Positions 1 through 10,991 of a stretch of 12,530 nucleotides of DNA are shown here, piece after piece. Position 1 is the stretch's first letter. Each line of letters begins with the position of its first letter. This stretch comes from a virus: the UHGV virus genome UHGV-1654121; one strand, written 5' to 3'. Below the pieces are notes generated by a model. It did not search any database and was not told the DNA's origin. It was given only the letters and a program-made list of their open reading frames with translations. A program made the translations under genes and the position numbers.

Positions 1-136
1 ATTAATAGACAACTATCTAAAAAACAACTCATTTAAGAACTTAAAACTAAGTTGTATTTGATATATAAGTATTCCGTATTGATACAATAGGTAGTAGTAT
101 TGCAAGGCATTTACGTGTTCAGTTGGATGATATGAA
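1..136 (+). promoter_or_regulatory. AT-rich leader upstream of the first ORF; candidate promoter region with no confidently assigned -35/-10 boxes
   Basis: Strongly AT-rich stretch (e.g. ttgatatataagtattccgtattgatacaatag) immediately upstream of the ORF starting at 137; TTGATA-like and TATAAG-like hexamers are present but spacing is ambiguous. Confidence 0.2.
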
Positions 137-349
137 ATGAAAAAAATAACTTCTAATTTGATCGCCCTTGAGGTCGGACATACGGTTTCAATTGACGATG
201 ATGGGGCAGCAGCCATACTCACTGAACTGCCAACAAAGTCTTTGTTACTTGACATGAAAGACGCAACCGCATACATCTTTGAGCTAAAGGGCAAGTGCTT
301 CACTCTCATCAATACCGGCTGCGGTTCAGTAGCCGTCCGCACTATTTAA
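137..349 (+). CDS. Small hypothetical protein (70 aa)
   Basis: Complete ORF with ATG start at 137; weak GGA-type purine stretch 6-12 nt upstream; mixed charged/hydrophobic composition; same orientation as downstream genes. No recognisable motif. Confidence 0.35.
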   Translation: MKKITSNLIALEVGHTVSIDDDGAAAILTELPTKSLLLDMKDATAYIFELKGKCFTLINTGCGSVAVRTI

Positions 350-375
350 CACCCCCCTCCCATCCTCTCTAGCGC

Positions 376-408
376 CTGTACGAACAGATTAGATGCCTGT
401 TCGTACAG
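376..408 (+). promoter_or_regulatory. Perfect 12-bp inverted repeat (ctgtacgaacag N9 ctgttcgtacag) preceded by a 21-nt polypyrimidine tract; stem-loop or operator candidate
   Basis: Read directly: 376-387 ctgtacgaacag is the exact reverse complement of 397-408 ctgttcgtacag, with a 9-nt loop; 350-370 is C/T only (cacccccctcccatcctctct). No T-run follows, so it is not a canonical intrinsic terminator. Confidence 0.4.
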
Positions 409-461
409 TGATAAATTACGCACATCAGAAAACAAATTGTTTTAACAACAAGGAAATTCTA

Positions 462-2690
462 ATGTCCAAAAAAACCACCAAAGCTGTACTGAAAGAGGTG
501 CAGGATTTTCGCGACTGTGTAAAACGAGTTGTAGCGATGCTTTCAGGTAAACAGATACCTGTTGCAGAACGAGGCAATGAAGCATATGTCCGCTATAACC
601 GGCGCGGCGAACCAGTGCTGGTAAACATCCCATCTATACCGGACGACGCGTCGCCAACCCTCATGAACGTAGTGCGTGGTTTTCTCGACCATGAGGTGGC
701 CCATATTCTCTTTACTGAACCGAAAGTCGCAATGCAGATGCGCGAAAGAGGAAAGGCTCCGTCTACGGGGCTTTGGAATGCGCTGGAAGACGTTTTTATT
801 GAACGCAGAATGGGGCAGGTCTTTAACGGAACCCGGCGTAATTTACTTGCAACACAGAGTCTGGTTATCGACAAATACTTCAGGAATAAAGTACCAGAAG
901 CGGTTTTAGCCTGTCACGGAGACCAGCGTGAATTGTTTTTGAAATTCTTCCTTTGCCCGGTCGTCCGCGCCTGGGATGGACAAAGCCCCTTCATCGATTT
1001 TATGGAAGAACACTGGCGCCTTATCGAGAGGCCGGTAGCCTTACTAAAGGAGCATGGTATAGACGTGGCCGTTCGCAATATGTCGAACACTGAGGATTGC
1101 GTGAAGGTCGCTGCTGCTATAGCCCAAATCATGCAGGATATGAAAGACAAGCCAGAGGGCAAATTACCAGAACTTAAATCATCTGCCAGAAAGCCGTCGG
1201 AGAGCAAAGACGAGTCCGAGGAAACGCCAGAATCAGGTGACGAGCCGTCTCATGGTGACTCTGCATCTAAGCCTGCCAAAGGCGAAGGCGATGACAAGGA
1301 AGAACGAGAAGATGATGCATCAGAAGAGGAAGATTCTGGGGATTCCGATTTGCCTGATTCGTTAGATAAGGACTTACCTACACACGTTAAAGATATTAGT
1401 GATACAGAAAGTAAATATACAGAAGCAGGCCACGAAGAGTCAGGAGACACCCCAGAATCCGATGCTATCGGCATGAAATCAAGTGACTCTGACACCGATG
1501 GTGATGACGGTGAGGACTCCGATACTGATCGTGGGGAAACTGAAGAAGACGTCGAAGGCAAAAAAAATAAAGATGGTGCGGAAGTGCCCAAAGACAGTGA
1601 GTCTGGCTTTGTTCCTGCGCCGGATGAAATGACTCTGGAGGAGGCGCTAAAGGCGCTCGACGAGATGGAAGACGGAATCGGTGAAATGACCGAAGACGCA
1701 CTGTCGGCCACCATCAGCAAAGAGCTTATGAGCGTCTCACCTTCTGATTATCGGCCATACGATCGATCATACGACTTTATCGGGTTGATTGATGGAGCCG
1801 AAGAGCATGTGAAGCGCACCAGAAAGACGTTCGGTGCAATACCAATGCACTCACCAGTCGACCGCTACCGTATGGTGCCAGAAGGCAGAAAACTCTTTGA
1901 ACTGAAAATCGAAAAACATCTGTCTGCAGGCGTTTCTTCGACGCTGGCCAAAGACCTGGAGCGGGCCATCGCCAGCCGCAACCGAGTTCAGTTTATACCT
2001 GGTCAGAGGCGTGGGCGGATACATGGCGCGAGCCTGTATCGTCTGGCAATGAACGACGACCGAGTGTTCCGCAAGAAGGAAGACCATAGAGCGGTGAACG
2101 CGTGTGTCCAGCAGGTCATCGACTTGTCCGGCTCAATGGATGGCGTGAAGATTCAACTGGCCCTAGCCAGTGCCTATACCATTGCGGATGCTTTAGATCG
2201 TATCAATGTCCCCAACATCATCACCGGCTTTACCACGTTCGGTAGCCCAGATTATGAAACCAGGTCGAAGCGCGGGTTTACACGCTTCGAGGCGCTCATG
2301 CTGCCCATTATCAAAAACTGGAATGAGAAAGCAAACTCTCCAGAGATCCGTGCTCGCATGGGATGCGTATGTGAGACGTTCCCCCTGCTCAATAACGTCG
2401 ATGGTGAGAGTGTCGCGCAACTGGCTACCCTGTTTGCAGGGCGAATGGAGGACAAAAAGATCATGCTGGTTATGAGTGATGGGGAGCCATGTGCTACAGG
2501 TAGTGGATTCCATCAGCATTTACGAACCGTCACCAAAGAAATTGAGACCTTGAGCGACATCGAACTGATGGCTATCGGCATTCTGACCGACGAACCACGG
2601 CGTTACTACAAAAATTACGCACTGGTTAACAGTGTTGAAGAGTTAGGGCCGTCAGTCGTCACTGAGTTATCTCGTATCATTCTTGGGTAA
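462..2690 (+). CDS. CobT-like vWA-domain protein (partner of a MoxR/CobS-type AAA+ ATPase), with HExxH motif and long acidic low-complexity segment
   Basis: Start set at ATG 462 (in frame with track ORF 393..2690) because AAGGAA at 450-455 lies 6 nt upstream and the 393 ATG is buried in the 376-408 hairpin. HEVAH encoded at 690-704; D/E/S-rich low-complexity segment about 1150-1700; MIDAS-like DLSGSMDG encoded around 2121-2135 followed by vWA-like sequence (ITGFTTFG...MSDGEP). Confidence 0.75.
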   Translation: MSKKTTKAVLKEVQDFRDCVKRVVAMLSGKQIPVAERGNEAYVRYNRRGEPVLVNIPSIPDDASPTLMNVVRGFLDHEVAHILFTEPKVAMQMRERGKAPSTGLWNALEDVFIERRMGQVFNGTRRNLLATQSLVIDKYFRNKVPEAVLACHGDQRELFLKFFLCPVVRAWDGQSPFIDFMEEHWRLIERPVALLKEHGIDVAVRNMSNTEDCVKVAAAIAQIMQDMKDKPEGKLPELKSSARKPSESKDESEETPESGDEPSHGDSASKPAKGEGDDKEEREDDASEEEDSGDSDLPDSLDKDLPTHVKDISDTESKYTEAGHEESGDTPESDAIGMKSSDSDTDGDDGEDSDTDRGETEEDVEGKKNKDGAEVPKDSESGFVPAPDEMTLEEALKALDEMEDGIGEMTEDALSATISKELMSVSPSDYRPYDRSYDFIGLIDGAEEHVKRTRKTFGAIPMHSPVDRYRMVPEGRKLFELKIEKHLSAGVSSTLAKDLERAIASRNRVQFIPGQRRGRIHGASLYRLAMNDDRVFRKKEDHRAVNACVQQVIDLSGSMDGVKIQLALASAYTIADALDRINVPNIITGFTTFGSPDYETRSKRGFTRFEALMLPIIKNWNEKANSPEIRARMGCVCETFPLLNNVDGESVAQLATLFAGRMEDKKIMLVMSDGEPCATGSGFHQHLRTVTKEIETLSDIELMAIGILTDEPRRYYKNYALVNSVEELGPSVVTELSRIILG

Positions 2691-2785
2691 TAGCTTTACC
2701 CTTAAAAATAAGTAACTACTTACTATACAGCCTAATATATTTCTATAAGATATACCCCACAAACGACAAACAGTAAGGAAAAAAC
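2691..2785 (+). promoter_or_regulatory. AT-rich intergenic region between the vWA and AAA+ genes; possible internal promoter plus RBS
   Basis: 95-nt AT-rich spacer (ttactatacagcctaatatatttctataagatata) ending in AAGGA at 2775-2779, 6 nt before ATG 2786. No exact T4 late-promoter TATAAATA box found. Confidence 0.2.
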
Positions 2786-4021
2786 ATGACCGCTACTGCA
2801 CTACAGCAAGAAGAACATTTGCCGGAAGCCATCGTCTGCAAGTGGTGTGGCAAATCCTTTCATTACCTGAAATCCCATATCTCTATGGGCCGTTGCGAGA
2901 ATATTCCTGAGTCTGCGAAGGGTCTGGACGTGGACGAAGTGGTGAAGATGTACACCTCTGCGTTTCCAGATGAACCAACGATCTCTCGCACGGCACTGGC
3001 CAAACTCAATGAGAAGCGTGCCGAAAAAAATTCATGCGAAGGAAAGGTAGCGGAGATTAGCGCACATCCGGGCTACGCAGGAACGGTCGAATACAAGACC
3101 GAACTGGTGGCCGCGCACGAGCTGCTTGGCGTAACGATCAAAGAGCTGGGAACGCCACGCGGAAAGCCACTACAGGTGACAGTCAACGTCAACACGCCCT
3201 ATCCGGAGTTCGTACCGGAAGCGAAGAAAAACTATGTGTATGGCGACTTCGACCTGATCAAAGACATCTTTATGATGCTGGAAATCGGAATCCCGGGTTA
3301 TCTCTGGGGCCATGCAGGAACCGGTAAATCTTCTCTTCCTACGCAGCTATGTGCCCTGCTAAATCGACCACTGATCCGCGCCCAGCATACGGCATCTATG
3401 GAGGAAGCGCACGTTACAGGCCAGATCCTCGCTCGCGATGGTTCCACCTATTTCGAACCGGGTTTACTAGCGCTGGCGATGAAAAATGGTTGGGTTTACC
3501 TCGCTGATGAATATGACTTCGCGTTCCCGCAGATTCTGGGTGTGTATCAGCCAGTTCTTGAAGGAGAGCCGCTGATCATCAAAGAGGCAACTGCGGACTG
3601 GCGCCGCATCACCCCGCATAAACGCTTTGCCTTCATTGGCACTGGCAACACTAACGGCTCTGGCGACGAAACAGGTCTCTATCAAGGCACAAACATCCAG
3701 AACGCAGCGAACTTCTCGCGTTTTGGCATTGTTTCAAACGTGAAGTACATGAGTACGAAGGCAGAAGTCAACATGCTGGCTGAAGCAGGCGTCATCCGCG
3801 AATACGCCGAGAAGATGGTGAAGTTCGCGAATCTTATCCGTGAAGGTTATGAAAAGCATCAGATTAGCCAGCCAATCGGGCCTCGTGAGCTGCTGCTGTC
3901 CGCCAAAATCGGAATGATGCGCGGTGATTTCTCTGCCGGCATCGAAAAGTCGTTTATCAATAAACTTCCATCCACGTCTGCACAGGCAGCGCGTGAAGTG
4001 GTTCAGAAGATCTTTGGTTAA
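2786..4021 (+). CDS. CobS-like / MoxR-family AAA+ ATPase
   Basis: Walker A GHAGTGKS encoded at 3308-3331; downstream ...WVYLADEYDFAFPQ... consistent with a Walker B region; strong RBS; immediately downstream of the vWA partner, the usual pairing for MoxR/CobS-vWA systems. N-terminus carries a Cys/His cluster (CKWCGKSFHYLKSHISMGRC). Confidence 0.8.
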   Translation: MTATALQQEEHLPEAIVCKWCGKSFHYLKSHISMGRCENIPESAKGLDVDEVVKMYTSAFPDEPTISRTALAKLNEKRAEKNSCEGKVAEISAHPGYAGTVEYKTELVAAHELLGVTIKELGTPRGKPLQVTVNVNTPYPEFVPEAKKNYVYGDFDLIKDIFMMLEIGIPGYLWGHAGTGKSSLPTQLCALLNRPLIRAQHTASMEEAHVTGQILARDGSTYFEPGLLALAMKNGWVYLADEYDFAFPQILGVYQPVLEGEPLIIKEATADWRRITPHKRFAFIGTGNTNGSGDETGLYQGTNIQNAANFSRFGIVSNVKYMSTKAEVNMLAEAGVIREYAEKMVKFANLIREGYEKHQISQPIGPRELLLSAKIGMMRGDFSAGIEKSFINKLPSTSAQAAREVVQKIFG

Positions 4022-4023
4022 TC

Positions 4024-4227
4024 GTGCGTAAAGGATGTTTCGGCTCTCTTATCGCAGCGTCTGAAACTGGCAGTGCTTGTTTGGCATGTCCGGATAGCCC
4101 CGAGTGCCACCAGTCAGCCAAAGAGGTTGCGATTTCGATGTATGGGAAGTTCGTTGGCTTCCCCAATGACAAAATCAAGAAAACCAGAAAGGTAAAAGCA
4201 CATGAAGGCTCTGATGGTCAGAACTGA
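4024..4227 (+). CDS. Possible small Cys-rich protein (67 aa, GTG start); doubtful
   Basis: ORF begins with GTG 2 nt after the upstream stop and overlaps the polymerase start by 26 nt; contains CLACPDSPEC (CxxC...C). No convincing RBS for the GTG; internal ATG at 4138 has AAGAGG 11 nt upstream. Could equally be non-coding leader. Confidence 0.2.
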   Translation: MRKGCFGSLIAASETGSACLACPDSPECHQSAKEVAISMYGKFVGFPNDKIKKTRKVKAHEGSDGQN

Positions 4228-7200
4228 CTTCTCCCTGGGAGAGTCAGCTCTAAAAGCAGAAAACGCGATGAAAATCGCGAGAGACGCTGGCTACACCGCT
4301 GTCATTTCCGCTGACAGCATGAACATTGCCAGTGTGATCCCCCTGCAGCGTGCCGCTGGCGACGACATGGCGGTTATTTGTGGTGTTAAGCTGAATGTGG
4401 TCGACGATCCGACATACGAGCACCGCGCTCGCTTGGCGAAAGAGTCAGGAAGATGTATGGAATCATTAGTTCGTGATCGCAGCTACTGCTTCACGGCACT
4501 GATAAAGAATGAACAAGGTTATCGCGACGTGTGCGAACTGATGACCTTAGCGAACAAGCGCGAGCAATTCTACTTTGTCCCGCGTCTGGCGCTTGAGCAG
4601 CTGGCAGCCGCATATGCCAAAGGCAACATCATCCTGCTGACGTCCGACATTGGCAGTGTATTCCAGCGCCGGGACTTCGCAAAAATTATCGGGACGCTGG
4701 TCACAGCTGGCGGTCGCGATAACTTCTACAGCGTGGTTTATCCGCACCCTACCCCATTCTACGACCAGATTAACGTCCGGGCGATGAAAGTGGCGAGCGC
4801 ACTGAAAATAGAGCCAGTGGCGTTCTATCCCGCTTATTACGAAGCGATCGACGACGCTGACATTAAAGACATTGCGCACATGGTTACGAACAACATCAAA
4901 ATCGACCAGCCGCATCGTCTGCGCATCCCCCACCAGCGAGATAACGCTGTTAATGGTCGTCGCCATCTCCTTGAAGCGCTGAAAGCCTTCTCCGTTCGCA
5001 TGGGCGTACCGGTAACAGCTGCAATGGCCTCAACAACGCAGGACACCATTATTGAAGCCTGCACATGGCGCTGGCATGAACTGCCACCAGCACTGCCCAA
5101 GATGGCAGACGACGAGCCTGCAACGCTGATGAAGCTGGCTGTCGCGGGGCTACGCAAGCGTCTAACTACTAAAGAGTTTGGCTACACACCACCGGCTTCT
5201 GAGCACCGAGTGTATGTTGAGCGACTGAAGTACGAAATGGACACACTGACCCGTCTGGGCTTCTGTGGCTACTTCCTGATGGTACGCGATCTGATGAATC
5301 ACAGCCGTGAAACTGGCATTCCTGTCGGGCCAGGTCGTGGTTCCTCTGCCGGTTCTCTGGTGGCGTGGTGCATAGGCATAACCAACGTCGATCCTATCCG
5401 TCACGGTCTTCTGTTTGAGCGTTTCATCAACCCTGAACGTCTTGACTTACCGGATGCGGATCTGGACTTCAGCCAGGCACGTCGTCATGAGGTGATCGAG
5501 TATCTGAATGAACGCTATGGCGAAGATTACGTTGCCGGTATTCCAAACTTCACCTATCTGGGCGCCGCTTCTGCGCTGCGAGACACTGCGCGTATTTACG
5601 GTGTCGACGCTGCGGATATGGCGGTATCCAAAGAGTTCAAGAATCTGGAAGACGATAGCCTGTCTCTGGAAGAGCTGCGCGAGCAACTGGCCAGCCTGGA
5701 CAAATACGCCACGAAAAACCCGGAAGCGTTCAAAGCGGCGTGTAAGCTACAAAGCCTGATGCGTGGTTTTGGCCGTCATGCAGCGGGGATGATCGTCGCT
5801 GGCGTTCCACTGGTAGAGCGCACGCCCGTCGAGCTGCGTGGCAACGCTCGCTGTATTGCATTCGATAAACGTTACTGCGAGGCAATGGGGCTGATTAAGC
5901 TGGACGTTCTCGGTCTGGCAACGCTCGATCTGCTGGATAGCGCGAAACGCTACATCAAAGAGAGTACCGGGGAAGACATCAATCTCGATGCTATCCCACT
6001 GGACGATCGCAAAGTTCTGGATGGGTTCGCTGCAGGGTACACTCAGGGCGTATTCCAGCTGGAGTCCGGCCCCATGCGCAAGCTGCTTAAAGATCTGGGC
6101 GGTGGCATTGAGCCAATGAGCTTCAAAACCGTTGTCGCCACGACCGCACTCTTCCGACCTGGCCCGATTCAATCAGGCATGTTGGACGACTATGTCTCCG
6201 TGGCCAAAGGCTTCATGGCTCCACAGTCGCTGCACCCGGTACTGGACGAGCTTACCGCGGAAACCAACGGCGTGATTCTGTATCAGGAACAGACGATGAA
6301 CGCGACACGATTGCTGGCCGGCTTCACGATGGCCGAAGCAGATGGTGTGCGTAAAGCGATCGGTAAAAAGGATATGGAAAAGATGAAGAGCATGGGCGAG
6401 AAGTTCGTCGTTCAGGCTCAAGCTGGTTGGATCGACGTTGAGATGGAAGACGGCACAACGCAGCGTATTCACCGCGCGGAACACTTCAAATGTGAGGACG
6501 GCGCACTGCGGACGGTCGAAGAAGCGCTGGAGGCAGGTGTAAAATTGCCTATGGCTGCTGTACGCGTTACAGGGTCACAACCGGGCTTGTCTGAGACGAA
6601 AGCTAAGGAGATCTGGGATGCCTTCGAGAAGAACGGTGCGTATCAGTTCAACAAATCACACTCCGTTGCTTACTCGCTGATCAGCTATCAGTCTATGTGG
6701 TTAAAGACACATTACCCTGCTGAGTTCTTCGCTGCTGCGCTCACCATTCTGGGCGAGGATAAGCACCAGGGCTTAGTTAAAGATGCGCTGACCTATGGCA
6801 TTCGCGTATTGCCACCAGACGTTAACGTTTCATCTAACCGAATTGAGATCCGCACGCTGGAAGACGGCAGTCAGGTTCTGTATGCACCATTCTCTGCTGT
6901 GAAAGGCTGCTCTGAGAATGGTTGCCAGGCCATCATGAGAGCGCGTGAGAAAGTTGGCGGCAAATTCGAATCACTGGCGCAATTTGAGGAATCTGTCGAG
7001 AAGCGAGCATGTAACAGCCGGGTACGCGAGTCGCTGCAAAAAGTCGGTGCGTTCGCATCGATTGAGCCTGGCTGTCTGCCAGCGACAGATCCGGAACGGC
7101 TGCGCGACCAGGCAGAGTTGATGGGTAATCTGGTGATCGACGCTGTAAAAGCCTCTCGACCGTTCGAGATGAACCCTAAGCGCTCTGCTGAAGTAAATGT

Positions 7201-7720
7201 ACTGATGACGCGCATGGCGGCCGAAATGGGGCTGGGAGACAATCTAATCCGTCCAAGCATTGGTATTAAGCCAAAAATCATGGTTATTCTGGACAACGCG
7301 AACGGCAATGATGGGCGTACCGGCTACTTCATGGAGAACGGCTACGACGACTTTAAGGCGAAGTTGCTTACTGCCGGCGATCTGCGTATGGGCGATCTCT
7401 ACGTCACCGGCGTGTGCAAAAAGGTGAAGGACAAAGAGAAGGACTACACCAAAGACGAGATCGGTCAGTTCACCGACTTTATGCGTGAAGAGATCAATCT
7501 GGTGCGTCCGACCTATGTACTGACGTGTGGCAGCCGGGCGACGTCGCTCTTCAACAACAAGAGCAAACCATCCGACCTGGTTGGACGCAAAGAGTATCTG
7601 CCGGAGCTGGATGCGACCGTTTTCTACGGATTTAACCCGAATATCCTTTACTTCCGACCGGAAGAAGGAGAGCGACTGGAGGCCATTCTGACTGATATTG
7701 CGGAGACGATAAATAAGTAA
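4202..7720 (+). CDS. DnaE-type DNA polymerase (Pol III alpha-like catalytic subunit) with degenerate N-terminal PHP domain and atypical C-terminal domain
   Basis: Family-C polymerase signature blocks present: GPGRGSSAGSLVAWCIGIT..DP....LLFERFINPER, catalytic PDADLDF (Asp codons at 5453, 5459, 5465), AFDKRY, LYQEQTM, FNKSHSVAYSLISYQ..WLKTHYPAEF, then an HhH-like region. N-terminus (MVRTDFSLGES...AVISADS) lacks the His-x-His and TDH metal ligands of active PHP domains. The last roughly 150 aa (about 7259-7717) do not resemble the OB-fold/tau-binding tail. Confidence 0.9.
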   Translation: MKALMVRTDFSLGESALKAENAMKIARDAGYTAVISADSMNIASVIPLQRAAGDDMAVICGVKLNVVDDPTYEHRARLAKESGRCMESLVRDRSYCFTALIKNEQGYRDVCELMTLANKREQFYFVPRLALEQLAAAYAKGNIILLTSDIGSVFQRRDFAKIIGTLVTAGGRDNFYSVVYPHPTPFYDQINVRAMKVASALKIEPVAFYPAYYEAIDDADIKDIAHMVTNNIKIDQPHRLRIPHQRDNAVNGRRHLLEALKAFSVRMGVPVTAAMASTTQDTIIEACTWRWHELPPALPKMADDEPATLMKLAVAGLRKRLTTKEFGYTPPASEHRVYVERLKYEMDTLTRLGFCGYFLMVRDLMNHSRETGIPVGPGRGSSAGSLVAWCIGITNVDPIRHGLLFERFINPERLDLPDADLDFSQARRHEVIEYLNERYGEDYVAGIPNFTYLGAASALRDTARIYGVDAADMAVSKEFKNLEDDSLSLEELREQLASLDKYATKNPEAFKAACKLQSLMRGFGRHAAGMIVAGVPLVERTPVELRGNARCIAFDKRYCEAMGLIKLDVLGLATLDLLDSAKRYIKESTGEDINLDAIPLDDRKVLDGFAAGYTQGVFQLESGPMRKLLKDLGGGIEPMSFKTVVATTALFRPGPIQSGMLDDYVSVAKGFMAPQSLHPVLDELTAETNGVILYQEQTMNATRLLAGFTMAEADGVRKAIGKKDMEKMKSMGEKFVVQAQAGWIDVEMEDGTTQRIHRAEHFKCEDGALRTVEEALEAGVKLPMAAVRVTGSQPGLSETKAKEIWDAFEKNGAYQFNKSHSVAYSLISYQSMWLKTHYPAEFFAAALTILGEDKHQGLVKDALTYGIRVLPPDVNVSSNRIEIRTLEDGSQVLYAPFSAVKGCSENGCQAIMRAREKVGGKFESLAQFEESVEKRACNSRVRESLQKVGAFASIEPGCLPATDPERLRDQAELMGNLVIDAVKASRPFEMNPKRSAEVNVLMTRMAAEMGLGDNLIRPSIGIKPKIMVILDNANGNDGRTGYFMENGYDDFKAKLLTAGDLRMGDLYVTGVCKKVKDKEKDYTKDEIGQFTDFMREEINLVRPTYVLTCGSRATSLFNNKSKPSDLVGRKEYLPELDATVFYGFNPNILYFRPEEGERLEAILTDIAETINK

Positions 7721-7725
7721 TAAAG

Positions 7726-7750
7726 AAAAACCCGCCAAATGGCGGGTTTT
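7726..7750. terminator. Bidirectional rho-independent terminator between convergent genes
   Basis: aaaaa-CCCGCC-aaat-GGCGGG-tttt: 6-bp GC stem (7731-7736 / 7741-7746), 4-nt loop, A-tract upstream and T-tract downstream, placed 6 nt after the polymerase stop and overlapping the last codons of the convergent - strand gene. Confidence 0.7.
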
Positions 7751-8309
7751 ATGCGCAAATTTTTTCGCAGTCTTGCGAGTGACTGAGTGAGCGAGTAACT
7801 CTCTCCACCTCATGAATGTCGCCCAACGATCTTATACGCAGGGCAAGATTCCACGTACTCAATGTGCGCGCGTTACGCACCAGTTCTTCCCGTGCTTTTT
7901 CGTCTTTGCTGTCAAGACGACCGCAGTCGTTCAACCATTTAGCGACTTCCGCCCAGTCCCAGAGTGGAGACTGACCGCTGATACGCTGAACAGGGCAAGG
8001 AAAATCACCTTTGCCACGTAATCCGTCTTTAAGCAGAGTAATAGCCTGGCGCGTTAAGCCAGAGAGTTGAGCAATATCGCTCAAGCCTACCAGTGCTGAA
8101 TCTACCGATTCCACCACTGCGCCAATGCCTGCTGTTTCAATATCAAGGATTGCCGATTCGATTGCTTCATCTAAAGATTTAGCTTCTCGGTCAAATTCTA
8201 CATACACTGAGTTTCCGTAGTAGCAAATGAGCGCATCATCGCAACCGTGGCTATACAGAGCATCTGCGACTACACAGTACTGACTACAGGTTATCAGAAT
8301 TATCCCCAT
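7749..8309 (-). CDS. DNA-binding protein with C-terminal excisionase/AlpA-type HTH; N-terminal domain weakly HicB-like
   Basis: Only - strand gene in the window. C-terminal half LSDIAQLSGLTRQAITLLKDGLRGKGDFPCPVQRISGQSPLWDWAEVAKWL fits the HTH followed by a conserved W..EV..WL pattern seen in AlpA/excisionase-like HTH domains. N-terminal half (YSHGCDDAL...DREAKSLDEAIESAILDIE) loosely resembles the HicB-type antitoxin fold. No obvious SD upstream of the ATG at 8309. Confidence 0.55.
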   Translation of the reverse strand: MGIILITCSQYCVVADALYSHGCDDALICYYGNSVYVEFDREAKSLDEAIESAILDIETAGIGAVVESVDSALVGLSDIAQLSGLTRQAITLLKDGLRGKGDFPCPVQRISGQSPLWDWAEVAKWLNDCGRLDSKDEKAREELVRNARTLSTWNLALRIRSLGDIHEVERVTRSLSHSQDCEKICA

Positions 8310-8376
8310 TTACATCAGCTTATCTACGTCAGCCCTCAAGTTCTTCAGCAAGCCAGCTCCACCGCCTGATTCCAAC

Positions 8377-8850
8377 ATGATAAAATTGATATACGAAAAT
8401 AAGTATATAGATAACATTATGAGCACCGATATCTACGAAAAAATCATGTCCGATCTGGAGTTCGACCGCGACAATCTGGAGGAAGTCTGGCGTCAGCAAC
8501 CGCGCCTGTTGATGGAGTATGGCTCTAAGCTGGCGCGGGCAGAACGTGAGGTTGCAGATGCAAAACTCTCTCTCGACGCGATCGAGGCAAAAATCTATGA
8601 CAACGAGCGTAAGAGCTTGAGTATGAATGGAATTAAATTTAATGAATCCGTACTGGAAGCGAAGGTTAGAACCAACCCGCAATACCTCGCAAAGCGCCAG
8701 AAACTCGACGATGCTCGACACATTGCAGACCTGTACAAGCACGCTGTAGCCGCCTTCTCCCACCGCCGCGATATGATTGTCCAGGCGTCGAAGATGGCTA
8801 TCGTAGAGATAGAGCGTCTGGGGGCCGAACGATTCCATTTACCCCGTTAA
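8377..8850 (+). CDS. Coiled-coil protein, possibly a UvsY-like recombination mediator
   Basis: Charged, helix-rich 157-aa ORF co-oriented with the downstream SSB; length and coiled-coil character resemble UvsY, but no signature motif is confidently matched. Start uncertain (ATG 8377 or ATG 8419; neither has a clear SD). Preferred over the overlapping - strand ORF 8329..8838, which has antisense-like L/R/C/F-rich composition. Confidence 0.5.
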   Translation: MIKLIYENKYIDNIMSTDIYEKIMSDLEFDRDNLEEVWRQQPRLLMEYGSKLARAEREVADAKLSLDAIEAKIYDNERKSLSMNGIKFNESVLEAKVRTNPQYLAKRQKLDDARHIADLYKHAVAAFSHRRDMIVQASKMAIVEIERLGAERFHLPR

Positions 8851-8969
8851 TTTATGCTAGATAGTAAGTAAGTACTGATCTATCATTCTTCTCGCTCGAA
8901 AGAGCCACGAACAAACGAACGCCCAATGCGCATAGCGCCAATGGCCACAATCACAACAAGGAGAAATAC

Positions 8970-9986
8970 ATGTCTAAGTCATTACTTGATCTGCTTAACA
9001 AGACCCGTGGCGATATTGCTTCCAAACGTGGCAATAACATTGATTTGACCCGTCTGAAAGATGGCAATAACTATCTGCGCATTTTTCCGAACAAGGACGA
9101 TCCGAATGGCGTGTTCTTCCAGACTTTCGGTATGCACTACGTTAAGCATCAGAATGAGGAAGGCAAAGATGTAACCACCGCCTATATCTGCGAACAACAC
9201 ACCCACGGCCACGCTTGCCAGCTGTGTGAGATGGTTATGGAAGGTCGCGCTCGCTTTAAGGGCAACAAAGCGATGGAAGAGCGCATTAATAGTATGCGTG
9301 CTACGCCGCGTTATCTGGTCAACGGTGTTCTGTCTGCGCGTGAAGACTTTGCGGACGCAGAGAAATGCCAGCTGATTGAGCTGCCGTCTACGGTCTTCGA
9401 CGATATCTGCAAAGTGATGTCCGAAGATATTGCGGACGATATTGGCAACCCACTGAGCAAAGAAGAAGGCTATGCGTTCCTGATTAAACGCACCGGTTCC
9501 GGTCGTGACACCAAGTACGACGTATCCCCGAAACGTAAAGTCTACAAAGGCGACATTCCTGAGAAGCTCTGGACTACCCAACACGATCTGATCGCATATG
9601 CGAACCAGGCTGACGAAACTCGTTTGCTGTCCACGGCTCGCACTATGGGTCGTCTGATTGGTATTGCGGCTCCGGCAGCAACTATGTCCTCACCAGCCAT
9701 TTCTTCCGCTGCAAAATCAGCCGCAGCTGGACTGCCAGGCTTTGGCTCTATCACTGGTCATACGGAAGGCGCAGCTGCTGTCGCTACAGCACATACTCCG
9801 GCGCCAGAGTCCACCAGCCTGGTTGATGAAGAGATCCTGCGTGCCGCTGAAGCTGAGTTCAAACCGGAAGAAGCGAAAGCTCCGGAAGCCACCGAAGCCG
9901 CAAGTGCTTCAGCATCTGCTGCCGCTGCATCTGTACCAGCTGATGAAGGTCTCGATAACCTGCTGGCTGAACTGGACGCTCTGTAA
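8970..9986 (+). CDS. T4 gp32-like single-stranded DNA-binding protein
   Basis: AAGGAG at 8958-8963 with a 6-nt spacer. N-terminal block LRIFPNKDDPNGVFF and His/Cys cluster H60...C74-x8-C83-x2-C86 (encoded about 9147-9227) parallel the gp32 Zn-binding subdomain (H-x12-C-x9-C-x2-C in T4). Ala/Ser-rich linker and acidic C-terminal tail (...DEGLDNLLAELDAL) are typical of SSB partner-interaction tails. Confidence 0.8.
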   Translation: MSKSLLDLLNKTRGDIASKRGNNIDLTRLKDGNNYLRIFPNKDDPNGVFFQTFGMHYVKHQNEEGKDVTTAYICEQHTHGHACQLCEMVMEGRARFKGNKAMEERINSMRATPRYLVNGVLSAREDFADAEKCQLIELPSTVFDDICKVMSEDIADDIGNPLSKEEGYAFLIKRTGSGRDTKYDVSPKRKVYKGDIPEKLWTTQHDLIAYANQADETRLLSTARTMGRLIGIAAPAATMSSPAISSAAKSAAAGLPGFGSITGHTEGAAAVATAHTPAPESTSLVDEEILRAAEAEFKPEEAKAPEATEAASASASAAAASVPADEGLDNLLAELDAL

Positions 9987-10002
9987 TCCCATAACGTGAC
10001 CA

Positions 10003-10031
10003 GTAAGGCGTCTGCGGACGCCTTACTTTTT
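10003..10031 (+). terminator. Rho-independent terminator downstream of the SSB gene
   Basis: gtaaggcgtc-tgcg-gacgccttac followed by ttttt: 10-bp stem (10003-10012 / 10017-10026), 4-nt loop, T-run 10027-10031; located 17 nt after the SSB stop codon. Confidence 0.75.
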
Positions 10032-10046
10032 GGAAGGAGTGTACCG

Positions 10047-10991
10047 GTGAATTATCTCTTTGTGGACGGTAACAGCCTGGGCTATTACCACCAGCAATCC
10101 GACAAATTACACAACGGCGAGATGGAAGTTCAGGCGGCTTTTGGCTTCGTGAAGAACGTTCGTCGTTACGCCTCAATTCTCCATGCCCGGCCAATGATCT
10201 TGTGGGATGGATTCAGCGACAAACGTCGCGACTTCTACCCGGAGTACAAAGCGAACCGCGACGACGACCCGGACATGAAGAAGATGAAAGAAGGCTTTGC
10301 CATCCAGAAGCCGTACATCTTGAAAATGATGACCGCGCTGGGCGTTAACCAACTCATTGCAAAGGACGCAGAAGCGGATGACCTGGCTGGAATGCTGGTC
10401 TCTCGTCTGGCTCCGCAGCCGACTGTTGACCATATCTATCTGCTAACGGGCGATGGCGACTGGCTCCAGCTTGTTCGTGAGAACGTGAGCTGGATAAGCC
10501 TGCGTGAAGACGCCAAGCACAAGCAGGTGAACTTCGAACAGTTCGCAGAGCTGACCGGTCTGCCGACCCCACGCGCGTTTCTGGAAGCGAAAGCGTTGCA
10601 GGGCGATAACTCGGACAACATCAAAGGCGTAGGTGGCATTGGTGATGGTGGCGCGAAAGAGCTGCTTCATGAATGGGGAAGCGTGGCCGCAATGGTACGC
10701 GGCATTAACGACGGTTCCATTGTCATCAACAAAGGTCGCTATAAGACGGCATTCAACAAGCTGGCAAAGAACGCCTTCAACGAGAAGACGGGCTGCCGGA
10801 TGCTCGAAGCCTTTAAGCGCAACATGATGCTGATGAACCTTATCGACACAAAATTCCCACCCAGCGAAATCGAGTCGATTAAAGGCGCACGCGATATGAG
10901 CGCCTTTGAACAGATGTGTTACGAGCTGAATTTCCGTTCGTTTCTGGAAGATCTGGAAGTGTTTGTTCTGCCGTTTGAGAGGTATTGCTGA
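10047..10991 (+). CDS. 5'-3' exonuclease / flap endonuclease (FEN, T4 RNase H / Pol I 5'-exo family)
   Basis: Conserved FEN blocks: (M)NYLFVDGNSLGYY, ILWDGFSDKRRDFYPEYKANRDD, EADDLAGML, LLTGDGDWLQLV, H3TH-like GDNSDNIKGVGGIG. Start placed at GTG 10047 (GGAAGGAG at 10032-10039, 7-nt spacer) rather than track start 9996, because the intervening sequence is the 10003-10031 terminator. Confidence 0.85.
   Translation: MNYLFVDGNSLGYYHQQSDKLHNGEMEVQAAFGFVKNVRRYASILHARPMILWDGFSDKRRDFYPEYKANRDDDPDMKKMKEGFAIQKPYILKMMTALGVNQLIAKDAEADDLAGMLVSRLAPQPTVDHIYLLTGDGDWLQLVRENVSWISLREDAKHKQVNFEQFAELTGLPTPRAFLEAKALQGDNSDNIKGVGGIGDGGAKELLHEWGSVAAMVRGINDGSIVINKGRYKTAFNKLAKNAFNEKTGCRMLEAFKRNMMLMNLIDTKFPPSEIESIKGARDMSAFEQMCYELNFRSFLEDLEVFVLPFERYC

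Follow-up and report, generated by a model that had tools for sequence, protein, structure and literature searches.

Introduction

Cobaltochelatase CobT has been described as a protein of four parts: an M48C peptidase-like N-domain, a disordered linker of ~90 residues, a shaft that enters the ring of CobS, and a von Willebrand factor A (vWA) domain that has a MIDAS, or metal ion-dependent adhesion site (bioRxiv 10.64898/2026.07.21.739949). According to the same report the N-domain (CobT_N) is an M48-like pseudo-peptidase that docks to CobS and CobN, and R76 and D80 of its R-G-x-x-D sequence form salt bridges with the CobS lid. Comparable pairs have been noted in phages. A MoxR ATPase together with a vWA protein that has a metallopeptidase fused at its N-terminus was described in group 2.2 T4-like jumbo phages by Iyer et al. 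2021 (PMC7824862), and Liu et al. 2021 (PMC8651126), who listed "cobS / peptidase" core genes, reported that the usual annotation of cyanophage cobT is that of a peptidase. In this study we analyzed such a pair, a CobT-like and a CobS-like gene, in a 12,530 nucleotide stretch of the virus genome UHGV-1654121 (hereafter the window), which is a piece of an SSU5-type phage-plasmid.

The genes cobS and cobT are among the most widely reported virome "auxiliary metabolic genes" (AMGs) and are routinely read as viral support for B12 synthesis. Our literature search found no experimental work on phage-plasmid cobS/cobT. The comparisons below indicate that the window very probably encodes a viral form of the CobS/CobT motor-adaptor pair, that is, a MoxR-class AAA+ ring with a vWA partner, in which the N-domain of the vWA protein looks as if it had kept the complete active site of a peptidase.

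Results

Domains of the CobT-like protein

The open reading frame (ORF) of the CobT-like protein starts at position 462, which is preceded by an AAGGAA ribosome-binding site and agrees with the starts of database homologs. Its product matched both Pfam CobT (PF06213, aa 11-331; E 1.3e-35, 123.7 bits vs a gathering cut-off of 26.1) and Pfam CobT_C/vWA (PF11775, aa 535-742; E 1.3e-108, 362.2 bits vs a gathering cut-off of 21), in that order, and phrog_1576 of the PHROGs along its full length. The best match among PDB sequences was cobaltochelatase CobT (9uka_G, E 4.8e-19, aa 489-737), with phmmer aligning aa 489-560 to CobT residues 355-426, a stretch that includes the shaft (Q373-D414). The MIDAS residues could be placed one by one: D554, S556 and S558 align with D422, S424 and S426 of the solved CobT, N644/N645 of the NNVDGE motif with N518, and D673 of the SDGEP motif with D546.

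Between the N-domain and the vWA part lies an acidic, Ser-rich linker. A preliminary description of the window, made from sequence alone, had reported a D/E/S-rich segment of ~180 aa; the segment is indeed present, but extends over ~205 aa (18% E, 17% D and 13% S). Among 124 relatives the linker ranges from 33 to 316 aa (median 184), with a median D+E content of 39%.

Conservation of the HExxH motif in the N-domain

The N-domain alone was searched against 1.84 billion cluster representatives, which returned 980 relatives. From the top 150 of these, 128 full-length proteins were retained as 50% non-redundant representatives, and the HExxH motif was kept in 126 of the 128 and the DxSxS of the MIDAS in all of them. 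Because of this retention, the motifs of the CobT-like protein are not due to chance. E109, D110 and E114 were conserved at 99-100%. In an alignment of 52 N-domains (29-69% identity), all of which matched PF06213, the invariant residues comprised R17, G38, A41, P57, G73, D76, H77, E78, H81, E109, D110, E114, G123, N127, R169 and G173.

The AlphaFold model of the N-domain (pLDDT 92.6) placed H77-E78-V-A-H81 on a helix like the active-site helix of gluzincin (M48-like) peptidases, with E109/D110/E114 on the adjacent helix (Table 1). The motif thus lies in a folded and conserved part of the protein. A Foldseek search of this model against the PDB gave nothing below E = 1, although the PDB copy evidently did not include the new CobT entries. 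Likewise, the N-domain profile did not recover the canonical CobT N-domain from PDB sequences, its only match being the anti-CRISPR AcrIIA26. That match (9zq6_B, residues 42-90; 49 residues, E 0.0025) covers aa 103-150 (window ~768-914), over the invariant NxxEDxFIE helix, and may be chance or a shared module.

Alignment with canonical CobT was more informative. Both phmmer and hhalign, each with a weak match (E 0.016 for hhalign, which compared the N-domain profile with a fragment of canonical CobT), gave the same register, in which D80-S-M-A-L-R of the solved CobT stands opposite D76-H-E-V-A-H of the viral protein. Since the canonical fragment contains no HExxH anywhere, and since the R-G-x-x-D sequence that contacts CobS is shared with the viral protein, canonical CobT would lack HExxH at this helix. 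In this alignment the N-domain of the chelatase looks like a pseudo-peptidase and that of the viral protein like a complete active site that has been retained. An active viral peptidase is, in our judgment, somewhat favored by this pattern. The explicit contrast of a peptidase-intact viral N-domain with a peptidase-dead chelatase N-domain appears to be new, and lets the CobT N-domain, newly solved, be read in evolutionary terms as that of a pseudo-peptidase.

The CobS-like ATPase

Pfam AAA_5 was matched by aa 173-293 of the CobS-like protein (E 4.5e-15), along with phrog_249 of the PHROGs, and relatives of the protein carry PF08406 CbbQ_C. Its best PDB match was CobS (9ujv_A, E 1.4e-25, aa 142-411), with midasin, CbbQ and NorQ next. 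From the alignment to CobS, a helix-2 insert and a pre-sensor-1 hairpin would be predicted to line the pore. In addition to Walker A (GHAGTGKS, from aa 175) and Walker B (YLADEYD, from aa 238), the protein has sensor-1 N288 and, 3' of the CobS signature GDETGLYQGT, R312. Residues G175, G178, G180, K181, D241, E242, N288, R312 and R367 were at least 95% conserved in 31 CobS-like sequences. The motifs and the relatedness to this clade place the protein in the AAA_5/CbbQ-NorQ-CobS group of the MoxR class. Profile searches (Pfam, PHROGs and PDB matches) therefore bore out the preliminary assignment of a CobT-like vWA protein with a CobS/MoxR-type AAA+ partner, and HEVAH near the N-terminus, the DxSxS of the MIDAS, and a position upstream of the replicative polymerase were all found as that description had them (Table 1).

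Homology to the chelatase subunits did not extend to orthology. The CobT-like protein scored 82.2 bits against the NCBIfam equivalog TIGR01651 (cut-off 759.05), matching with its vWA part only (aa 486-737), and the CobS-like protein scored 85.4 bits against TIGR01650 (cut-off 558.55). By these scores neither protein is a true CobT or CobS ortholog.

A putative zinc finger at the N-terminus of the ATPase

The alignment of the ATPase with 9ujv begins at aa 142, which corresponds to CobS residue 39, so that the viral protein has ~105 residues that are extra relative to canonical CobS. These hold the CxxC...H...H...C cluster that had been noticed ahead of Walker A (C18-x2-C21, H26, H31 and C37). 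The N-terminal consensus of the family reads K-I-x-C-x2-C-G-A-x-V-H-x-I-Q-x-H-L-x3-H-P-E-x-T-x-E-x-Y...P-x-A-P-L-L-S, and C-x2-C-x9-H-x4-H was found in 112 of 120 relatives. The window copy, C18-x2-C21-x9-H31-x5-C37, has a changed likely fourth ligand (C37) plus an insertion, and some alphaproteobacterial relatives have Asp instead of the second Cys.

Pfam ROS_MUCR (PF05443) was the commonest match of the family N-termini (8 of 10, and 23 of 30 at E <=0.1). Its best E value was 6e-5, and one of ten individually scanned relatives scored above gathering (26.1 bits). When the family profile was compared with all PDB sequences, the Agrobacterium Ros zinc finger 2jsp_A came first (E 0.0028), with the two Cys and the two His aligned. 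AlphaFold2 modeled aa 11-80 of the ATPase with pLDDT values of 91-97. Going by these profiles, the Cys/His cluster is best filed as a Ros/MucR-like zinc finger. Within the literature that could be searched, no paper on MucR together with phage CobS and no account of the finger on the ATPase were found, and its presence on a CobS-like ATPase appears to be new.

Genomic context of the pair

The window and Salmonella phage SSU5 share 93.7% identity over 88% of the window length. Among 5,426 complete E. coli genomes, 33 have plasmids that carry both ORFs with a nucleotide identity of >=95% (>=99% in 21 records), and no chromosomal copies of them were found in these genomes. The assignment of the window to an SSU5-type phage-plasmid follows from this identity and from the plasmid-only occurrence in E. 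coli.

The pair had been placed at the head of a replication operon. In SSU5 and a close E. coli relative, however, genes for DnaB, primase and DNA ligase lie upstream of it, so that the pair does not head the replication module but lies in its middle. Around 20 viral contigs of 75-215 kb (mostly ~100-110 kb), with CobT-like proteins 27-40% identical to that of the window, had the order DnaB, primase, ligase, ..., CobT, CobS, ..., DnaE, phrog_2058, SSB, and the same order is annotated in SSU5, Pseudomonas phage nickie and Rhizobium phages. A scan of one genome per species, with a search pattern that contained HExxH and so made its HExxH count circular, identified 31 loci in alpha-, beta-, gamma- and deltaproteobacteria and one cyanobacterium, mostly on contigs of 100-118 kb; CobS was adjacent in 24 of these and DnaE downstream in 21. 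In all, the pair stays next to DnaE in about 50 divergent loci, and the breadth of this CobT-CobS-DnaE synteny appears to be new. In Vibrio phage ICP2 the pair precedes primase, helicase and PolA. In T4-like contigs and others that are distant it again has replication genes around it: the most frequent Pfam families of 136 neighbor ORFs were clamp loader (7), sliding clamp (6), RNase H (5), gp46-like (5), DnaB (3) and PolA (2). In every lineage examined the pair was among replication or early genes.

One natural mutant was found. On E. coli ET729 plasmid NZ_CP100929.1 (139 kb; positions 6001-10010 of our locus L127) an IS91-family insertion after nt 348 leaves the CobT-like gene as a pseudogene in two pieces; dnaE and the CobS-like gene are intact, and the plasmid is maintained in a complete genome. 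Because the disrupted copy is on a maintained plasmid, maintenance in the plasmid state does not require the CobT-like gene, at any rate in this isolate.

Two further records were irregular. An apparent CobT-DnaE fusion in Xanthomonas phage JGB6 (OQ436456.1; locus L075, 8001-10025) was rejected as an annotation artefact of a frameshift-ridden record, in which the ORFs named "DNA polymerase III subunit alpha" are fragments of the CobT-like and CobS-like genes. In the Halomonas sulfidaeris chromosome AP019514.1 (locus L144, 6001-12675) the CobT-CobS-DnaE block is broken, with CobT in 2, CobS in 3 and DnaE in 5 pieces, and this copy looks like a decaying integrated element.

Other features of the window

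The coordinates of the pair and of the surrounding genes are given in Table 1.

Table 1. Features of the window, with positions counted from its first nucleotide.
Feature	Position	Strand	Remarks
CobT-like protein	462-2690	+	742 aa
N-domain, aa 1-230	462..1151	+	Topology described for CobT_N (helix, sheet of three strands, helical bundle)
HEVAH (H77, E78, H81), putative zinc-binding/catalytic motif, aa 77-81	690..704	+	On helix 65-84
E109-D110-x3-E114, candidate third zinc ligand ("glutamate helix")	786..803	+	On helix 100-120
Acidic Ser-rich low-complexity linker, aa ~225-429, predicted disordered	1134..1748	+	Composition
Segment homologous to CobT shaft and vWA N-terminal extension, aa ~489-546	1926..2099	+	phmmer
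vWA domain (CobT_C) with MIDAS	2064..2690	+	Pfam CobT_C
MIDAS DLSGS (D554/S556/S558), aa 554-558	2121-2135	+	Motif
NNVDGE, aa 644-649	2391-2408	+	MIDAS part
SDGEP, aa 672-676	2475-2489	+	MIDAS part
CobS-like protein	2786-4021	+	411 aa
Ros/MucR-like zinc-finger domain, aa ~13-84	2822..3037	+	Profile and AlphaFold
Candidate zinc ligands C18, C21, H31, C37	2837-2839, 2846-2848, 2876-2878, 2894-2896	+	
AAA+ core	3302..3664	+	Motifs
Walker A GHAGTGKS	3308-3331	+	Motif
Walker B YLADEYD	3497-3517	+	Motif
Cys-rich small ORF, 67 aa, phrog_6337	4024-4227	+	Overlaps dnaE start by 26 nt
DnaE (Pol III alpha), 1172 aa	4202-7720	+	Pfam PHP, DNA_pol3_alpha, finger, HHH_6
AlpA-like regulator (phrog_2620)	7749-8309	-	AlpA/excisionase-like
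phrog_2058 protein, 157 aa	8377-8850	+	No Pfam match
gp32-type single-stranded DNA-binding protein (SSB)	8970-9986	+	
5'-3' exonuclease	9996-10991	+	

The small ORF between the CobS-like gene and dnaE has Cys/His residues at C5, C19, C22, C28 and H29 and is kept in SSU5, Yersinia and Xenorhabdus loci; its product may be a small zinc-binding partner of the CobS-like protein or of DnaE. The C-terminal ~250 residues of DnaE (aa 920-1172, window 6959-7720) matched only the unknown-function PHROGs phrog_4335 and phrog_13175. The SSU5 annotation has no sliding clamp and no clamp loader, which bears on the processivity of the phage DnaE. Just 3' of DnaE, the phrog_2058 protein is conserved across the whole supergroup, and in some relatives it forms the C-terminal part of proteins of 255-434 aa. 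The AlpA-like gene is a lone minus-strand gene between dnaE and the phrog_2058 gene, in an otherwise co-directional replication module.

The first ~330 bases of the window (1-332) had no match to SSU5. Just upstream of the CobT-like gene there is a tRNA-Asn in SSU5, and an integrase and small ORFs in relatives; the region between the ligase gene and the CobT-like gene is a variable cargo spot. A tRNA search of the window found none, and a promoter and terminator scan of positions 1-4400 gave no more sites than were found in shuffles.

Database names of the two proteins include "cobaltochelatase CobT-related protein", "porphyrin biosynthesis protein" and "AAA family ATPase". In Escherichia phage Cyrano (OV696614.1) the equivalents of the two genes are labeled "dimethylbenzimidazole phosphoribosyltransferase" and "cobalamin synthetase". 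These labels are an annotation error by name collision, as such products are the unrelated enterobacterial CobT and CobS.

Discussion

A candidate machine for remodeling and proteolysis

The account that we favor treats the two proteins as a motor and its adaptor. We put the chance that the pair is an ATP-driven remodeling and protease machine of the lytic, replication-phase programme at about even, and a direct role in replication is a more tentative suggestion. By analogy with the solved CobST and CobSTN complexes, a hexamer of the CobS-like protein would grip the shaft in its pore, and the N-domain would dock on the ATPase lid via the conserved R72-G73-x2-D76. A client would be held between the MIDAS face and the N-domain, at the place that CobN takes in the chelatase, and ATP hydrolysis would pull on it. 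Since the N-domain retains HExxH and conserved acidic residues, the client would probably be cut or trimmed as well as remodeled, through the gluzincin-type motif H77-E78-x2-H81 together with E109/D110/E114. Through its zinc finger the machine could be anchored on DNA or on a partner protein. The gene context suggests that the machine would act early, in the replication-phase part of the lytic programme, and that it would neither insert cobalt in enterobacterial hosts nor be needed for plasmid maintenance. The client might be part of the DnaE replisome of the phage itself, or some host protein whose removal is needed.

The preliminary description had likewise preferred remodeling to cobalt chelation, and that part is favored, indirectly, by the equivalog scores, by the gene content of SSU5 (discussed below) and by the replication synteny. 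Its more specific proposal, a role in assembly of the replisome or of nucleoprotein, is a conjecture; by the IS91-disrupted gene of ET729, the CobT-like protein is dispensable for plasmid-state replication there. In a more elaborate form of the machine, which we think rather unlikely, it would be a DNA-tethered, ATP-driven unfoldase-protease that works on the DnaE replisome or on template-bound proteins, with the finger on DNA, the MIDAS capturing the client and the M48-like site cutting it. If this speculation is correct, the cobaltochelatase motor of B12 synthesis would descend from such a machine as a degenerate branch whose peptidase is dead, and the many viral "cobS/cobT" AMGs known from gut and marine viromes would be accessory to replication and would not be B12 genes.

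Several observations weigh against a replication-phase protease machine. Pfam peptidase families were not matched consistently by the N-domains. The window copy of the finger scored 13.0 bits against ROS_MUCR (E 0.11), below the gathering score of 25.4 bits, the fold search with the zinc finger gave no structural match, and the net charge of the finger domain is near zero, which disfavors DNA binding. With regard to context, the Pfam census of neighbor ORFs lacked a background control, and no genes are easier to recognize than those of replication. The conserved synteny may reflect only that one old phage lineage has passed on a conserved module vertically. CobN or ChlH is present in many other hosts of the family (Pseudomonas, Rhizobium and cyanobacteria), where hijacking of a chelatase is conceivable. 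Finally, the peptidase activity, the zinc binding, the formation of the complex and the client are, all four, inferred.

Alternative explanations

A role in virion assembly has been proposed for the same architecture in T4-like jumbo phages (PMC7824862): the MoxR-vWA pair would fold or assemble structural proteins, and the metallopeptidase domain would process them. A MoxR-vWA pair lacking the peptidase has been shown to act in tail development of the Acidianus two-tailed virus, and the head module of SSU5, with its portal, scaffold and major capsid genes, has no recognizable prohead protease. However, head modules with only a scaffold need no protease, the pair is ~37 kb from the head genes in SSU5, and it was outside the structural module in every lineage that we examined. 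We consider this explanation improbable.

Host takeover or anti-defense, in which the machine would capture and degrade a host protein (a nucleoid protein, or a restriction or other defense factor) and the acidic linker would serve as a DNA mimic or decoy, seems to us similarly improbable. The position among early genes, the high acidity of the linker across the family, the profile match of the NxxEDxFIE helix to AcrIIA26 and the dispensability of the CobT-like gene for plasmid maintenance in the one IS91 mutant are all consistent with it. Yet neither protein matched a PADLOC or anti-defense family (E <=0.01), the acidic linker is also found in the housekeeping chelatase, and the AcrIIA26 match is short and weak. 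In addition, the pair is deeply conserved and syntenic across host phyla, unlike typical counter-defense genes, which turn over fast.

The reading under which the genes are usually filed is that of an AMG: the viral CobS and CobT would join host CobN, or a ChlH/BchH-type subunit, and raise cobalamin synthesis, for example for a B12-dependent ribonucleotide reductase (RNR). This has been proposed explicitly for archaeal and cyanobacterial viruses (PMC8651126), and the homology is real, as the best PDB matches are cobaltochelatase CobS and CobT and the shaft, the MIDAS and the lid-docking residues are conserved; moreover, some hosts of the family do have CobN. Nevertheless, both proteins score far under the equivalog cut-offs, and the AMG explanation does not account for the zinc finger or for a near-invariant HExxH that is absent from canonical CobT. 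SSU5 encodes a class Ia, B12-independent RNR (NrdA/NrdB), thymidylate synthase and dihydrofolate reductase, and its annotation includes no cobalamin (cob) genes, and a link to a B12-dependent RNR was accordingly rejected for the SSU5 lineage. As for the hosts, we know of no CobN in E. coli, Salmonella or Klebsiella; Salmonella and Klebsiella use the CbiK route, which is anaerobic in Salmonella. E. coli is capable of cobinamide salvage only, and its synthesis of B12 needs heterologous cobN, cobS and cobT (PMC6249242). Because E. coli is restricted to salvage and Salmonella and Klebsiella use CbiK, CobN would not be available for hijacking in the hosts of this element. We are fairly confident that the pair is not a chelatase in this host, and hold the AMG explanation to be very improbable for it.

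Equally doubtful is a pair that acts without proteolysis, with the HExxH domain as a non-catalytic docking module around a structural metal; like NorQD, CbbQO or CoxDE, such a pair would use ATP purely for chaperoning or for metal insertion. Although canonical CobT_N is a pseudo-peptidase used in docking, other MoxR-vWA systems work without proteolysis (PMC7159879) and no Pfam peptidase model was matched, the full conservation of the catalytic Glu (E78), both His and E109/D110/E114 over 29-69% identity is the pattern of an active site and not of a relic.

These findings have consequences for annotation. Because the protease motif is kept, a large sub-family has a Ros/MucR-like zinc finger, the pair keeps company with replication genes in three unrelated module types and there are hosts without CobN, we argue that in this large lineage, if not elsewhere, the B12 annotation is wrong. 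Both SSU5, in Salmonella LT2, and the phage-plasmids of E. coli are amenable to genetics, so that the long-standing question of viral CobST function is directly testable.

Comparison with known systems

The phage architecture of MoxR ATPase, vWA protein and metallopeptidase was already described in 2021, and the pair in the window does not reveal a new kind of system. Nor are its additions as unusual as first thought: canonical CobT likewise has an acidic linker and a MIDAS, and HExxH is the norm of the viral family, in which the domain had been noted before (PMC7824862, PMC8651126). We liken the window pair to those phage pairs by description, not by homology to the accessions cited there; they have the same three-part viral architecture.

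Among solved complexes, CobSTN (9uka, 9ujv) has the same two-gene unit and the same order of CobT domains (M48-like N-domain, disordered acidic linker, shaft, and vWA domain with MIDAS), and the CobS signature GDxTGLYxGT is common to CobS and the viral ATPase. The differences are in the details. The viral N-domain has HExxH where canonical CobT has SMALR, the viral linker is about twice as long, and the ATPase has its additional N-terminal residues with the zinc finger. The equivalog scores amount to approximately one tenth (CobT) and one seventh (CobS) of the cut-offs, and the viral pair has no host CobN partner and a replication context in place of cob genes.

M48/gluzincin metallopeptidases (Ste24/ZMPSTE24, HtpX, Oma1 and BlaR1) are also to be counted among the closest known systems. 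For the finger the nearest are the Ros/MucR proteins (PF05443; Ros87, 2JSP), with identical spacing to the family (C-x2-C-x9-H-x4-H) followed by the T-x-E-x-Y helix; those are free-standing regulators, whereas here the domain is fused to an AAA+ ATPase.

In CbbQ-CbbO (Rubisco activase), NorQ-NorD, RavA-ViaA and CoxD-CoxE, as here, an AAA_5/CbbQ-type ATPase is paired with a client-capturing vWA/MIDAS adaptor; CbbQ and NorQ are detectable sequence relatives of the CobS-like protein, and the general mechanism has been reviewed (PMC7159879). Unlike the viral pair, these four systems have no M48-like HExxH N-domain and no zinc finger on the ATPase, and their clients are adjacently encoded metabolic enzymes. 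Relatives of the window pair with T4-type neighbors (gp44, gp45, gp62 and RNase H) have HExxH and the MIDAS, but the Ros/MucR-like finger is absent from the N-termini of their ATPases. The T4-like jumbo phage pairs were proposed to serve virion assembly; the pair described here has a phage-plasmid's DnaE, DnaB, primase and ligase as its neighbors.

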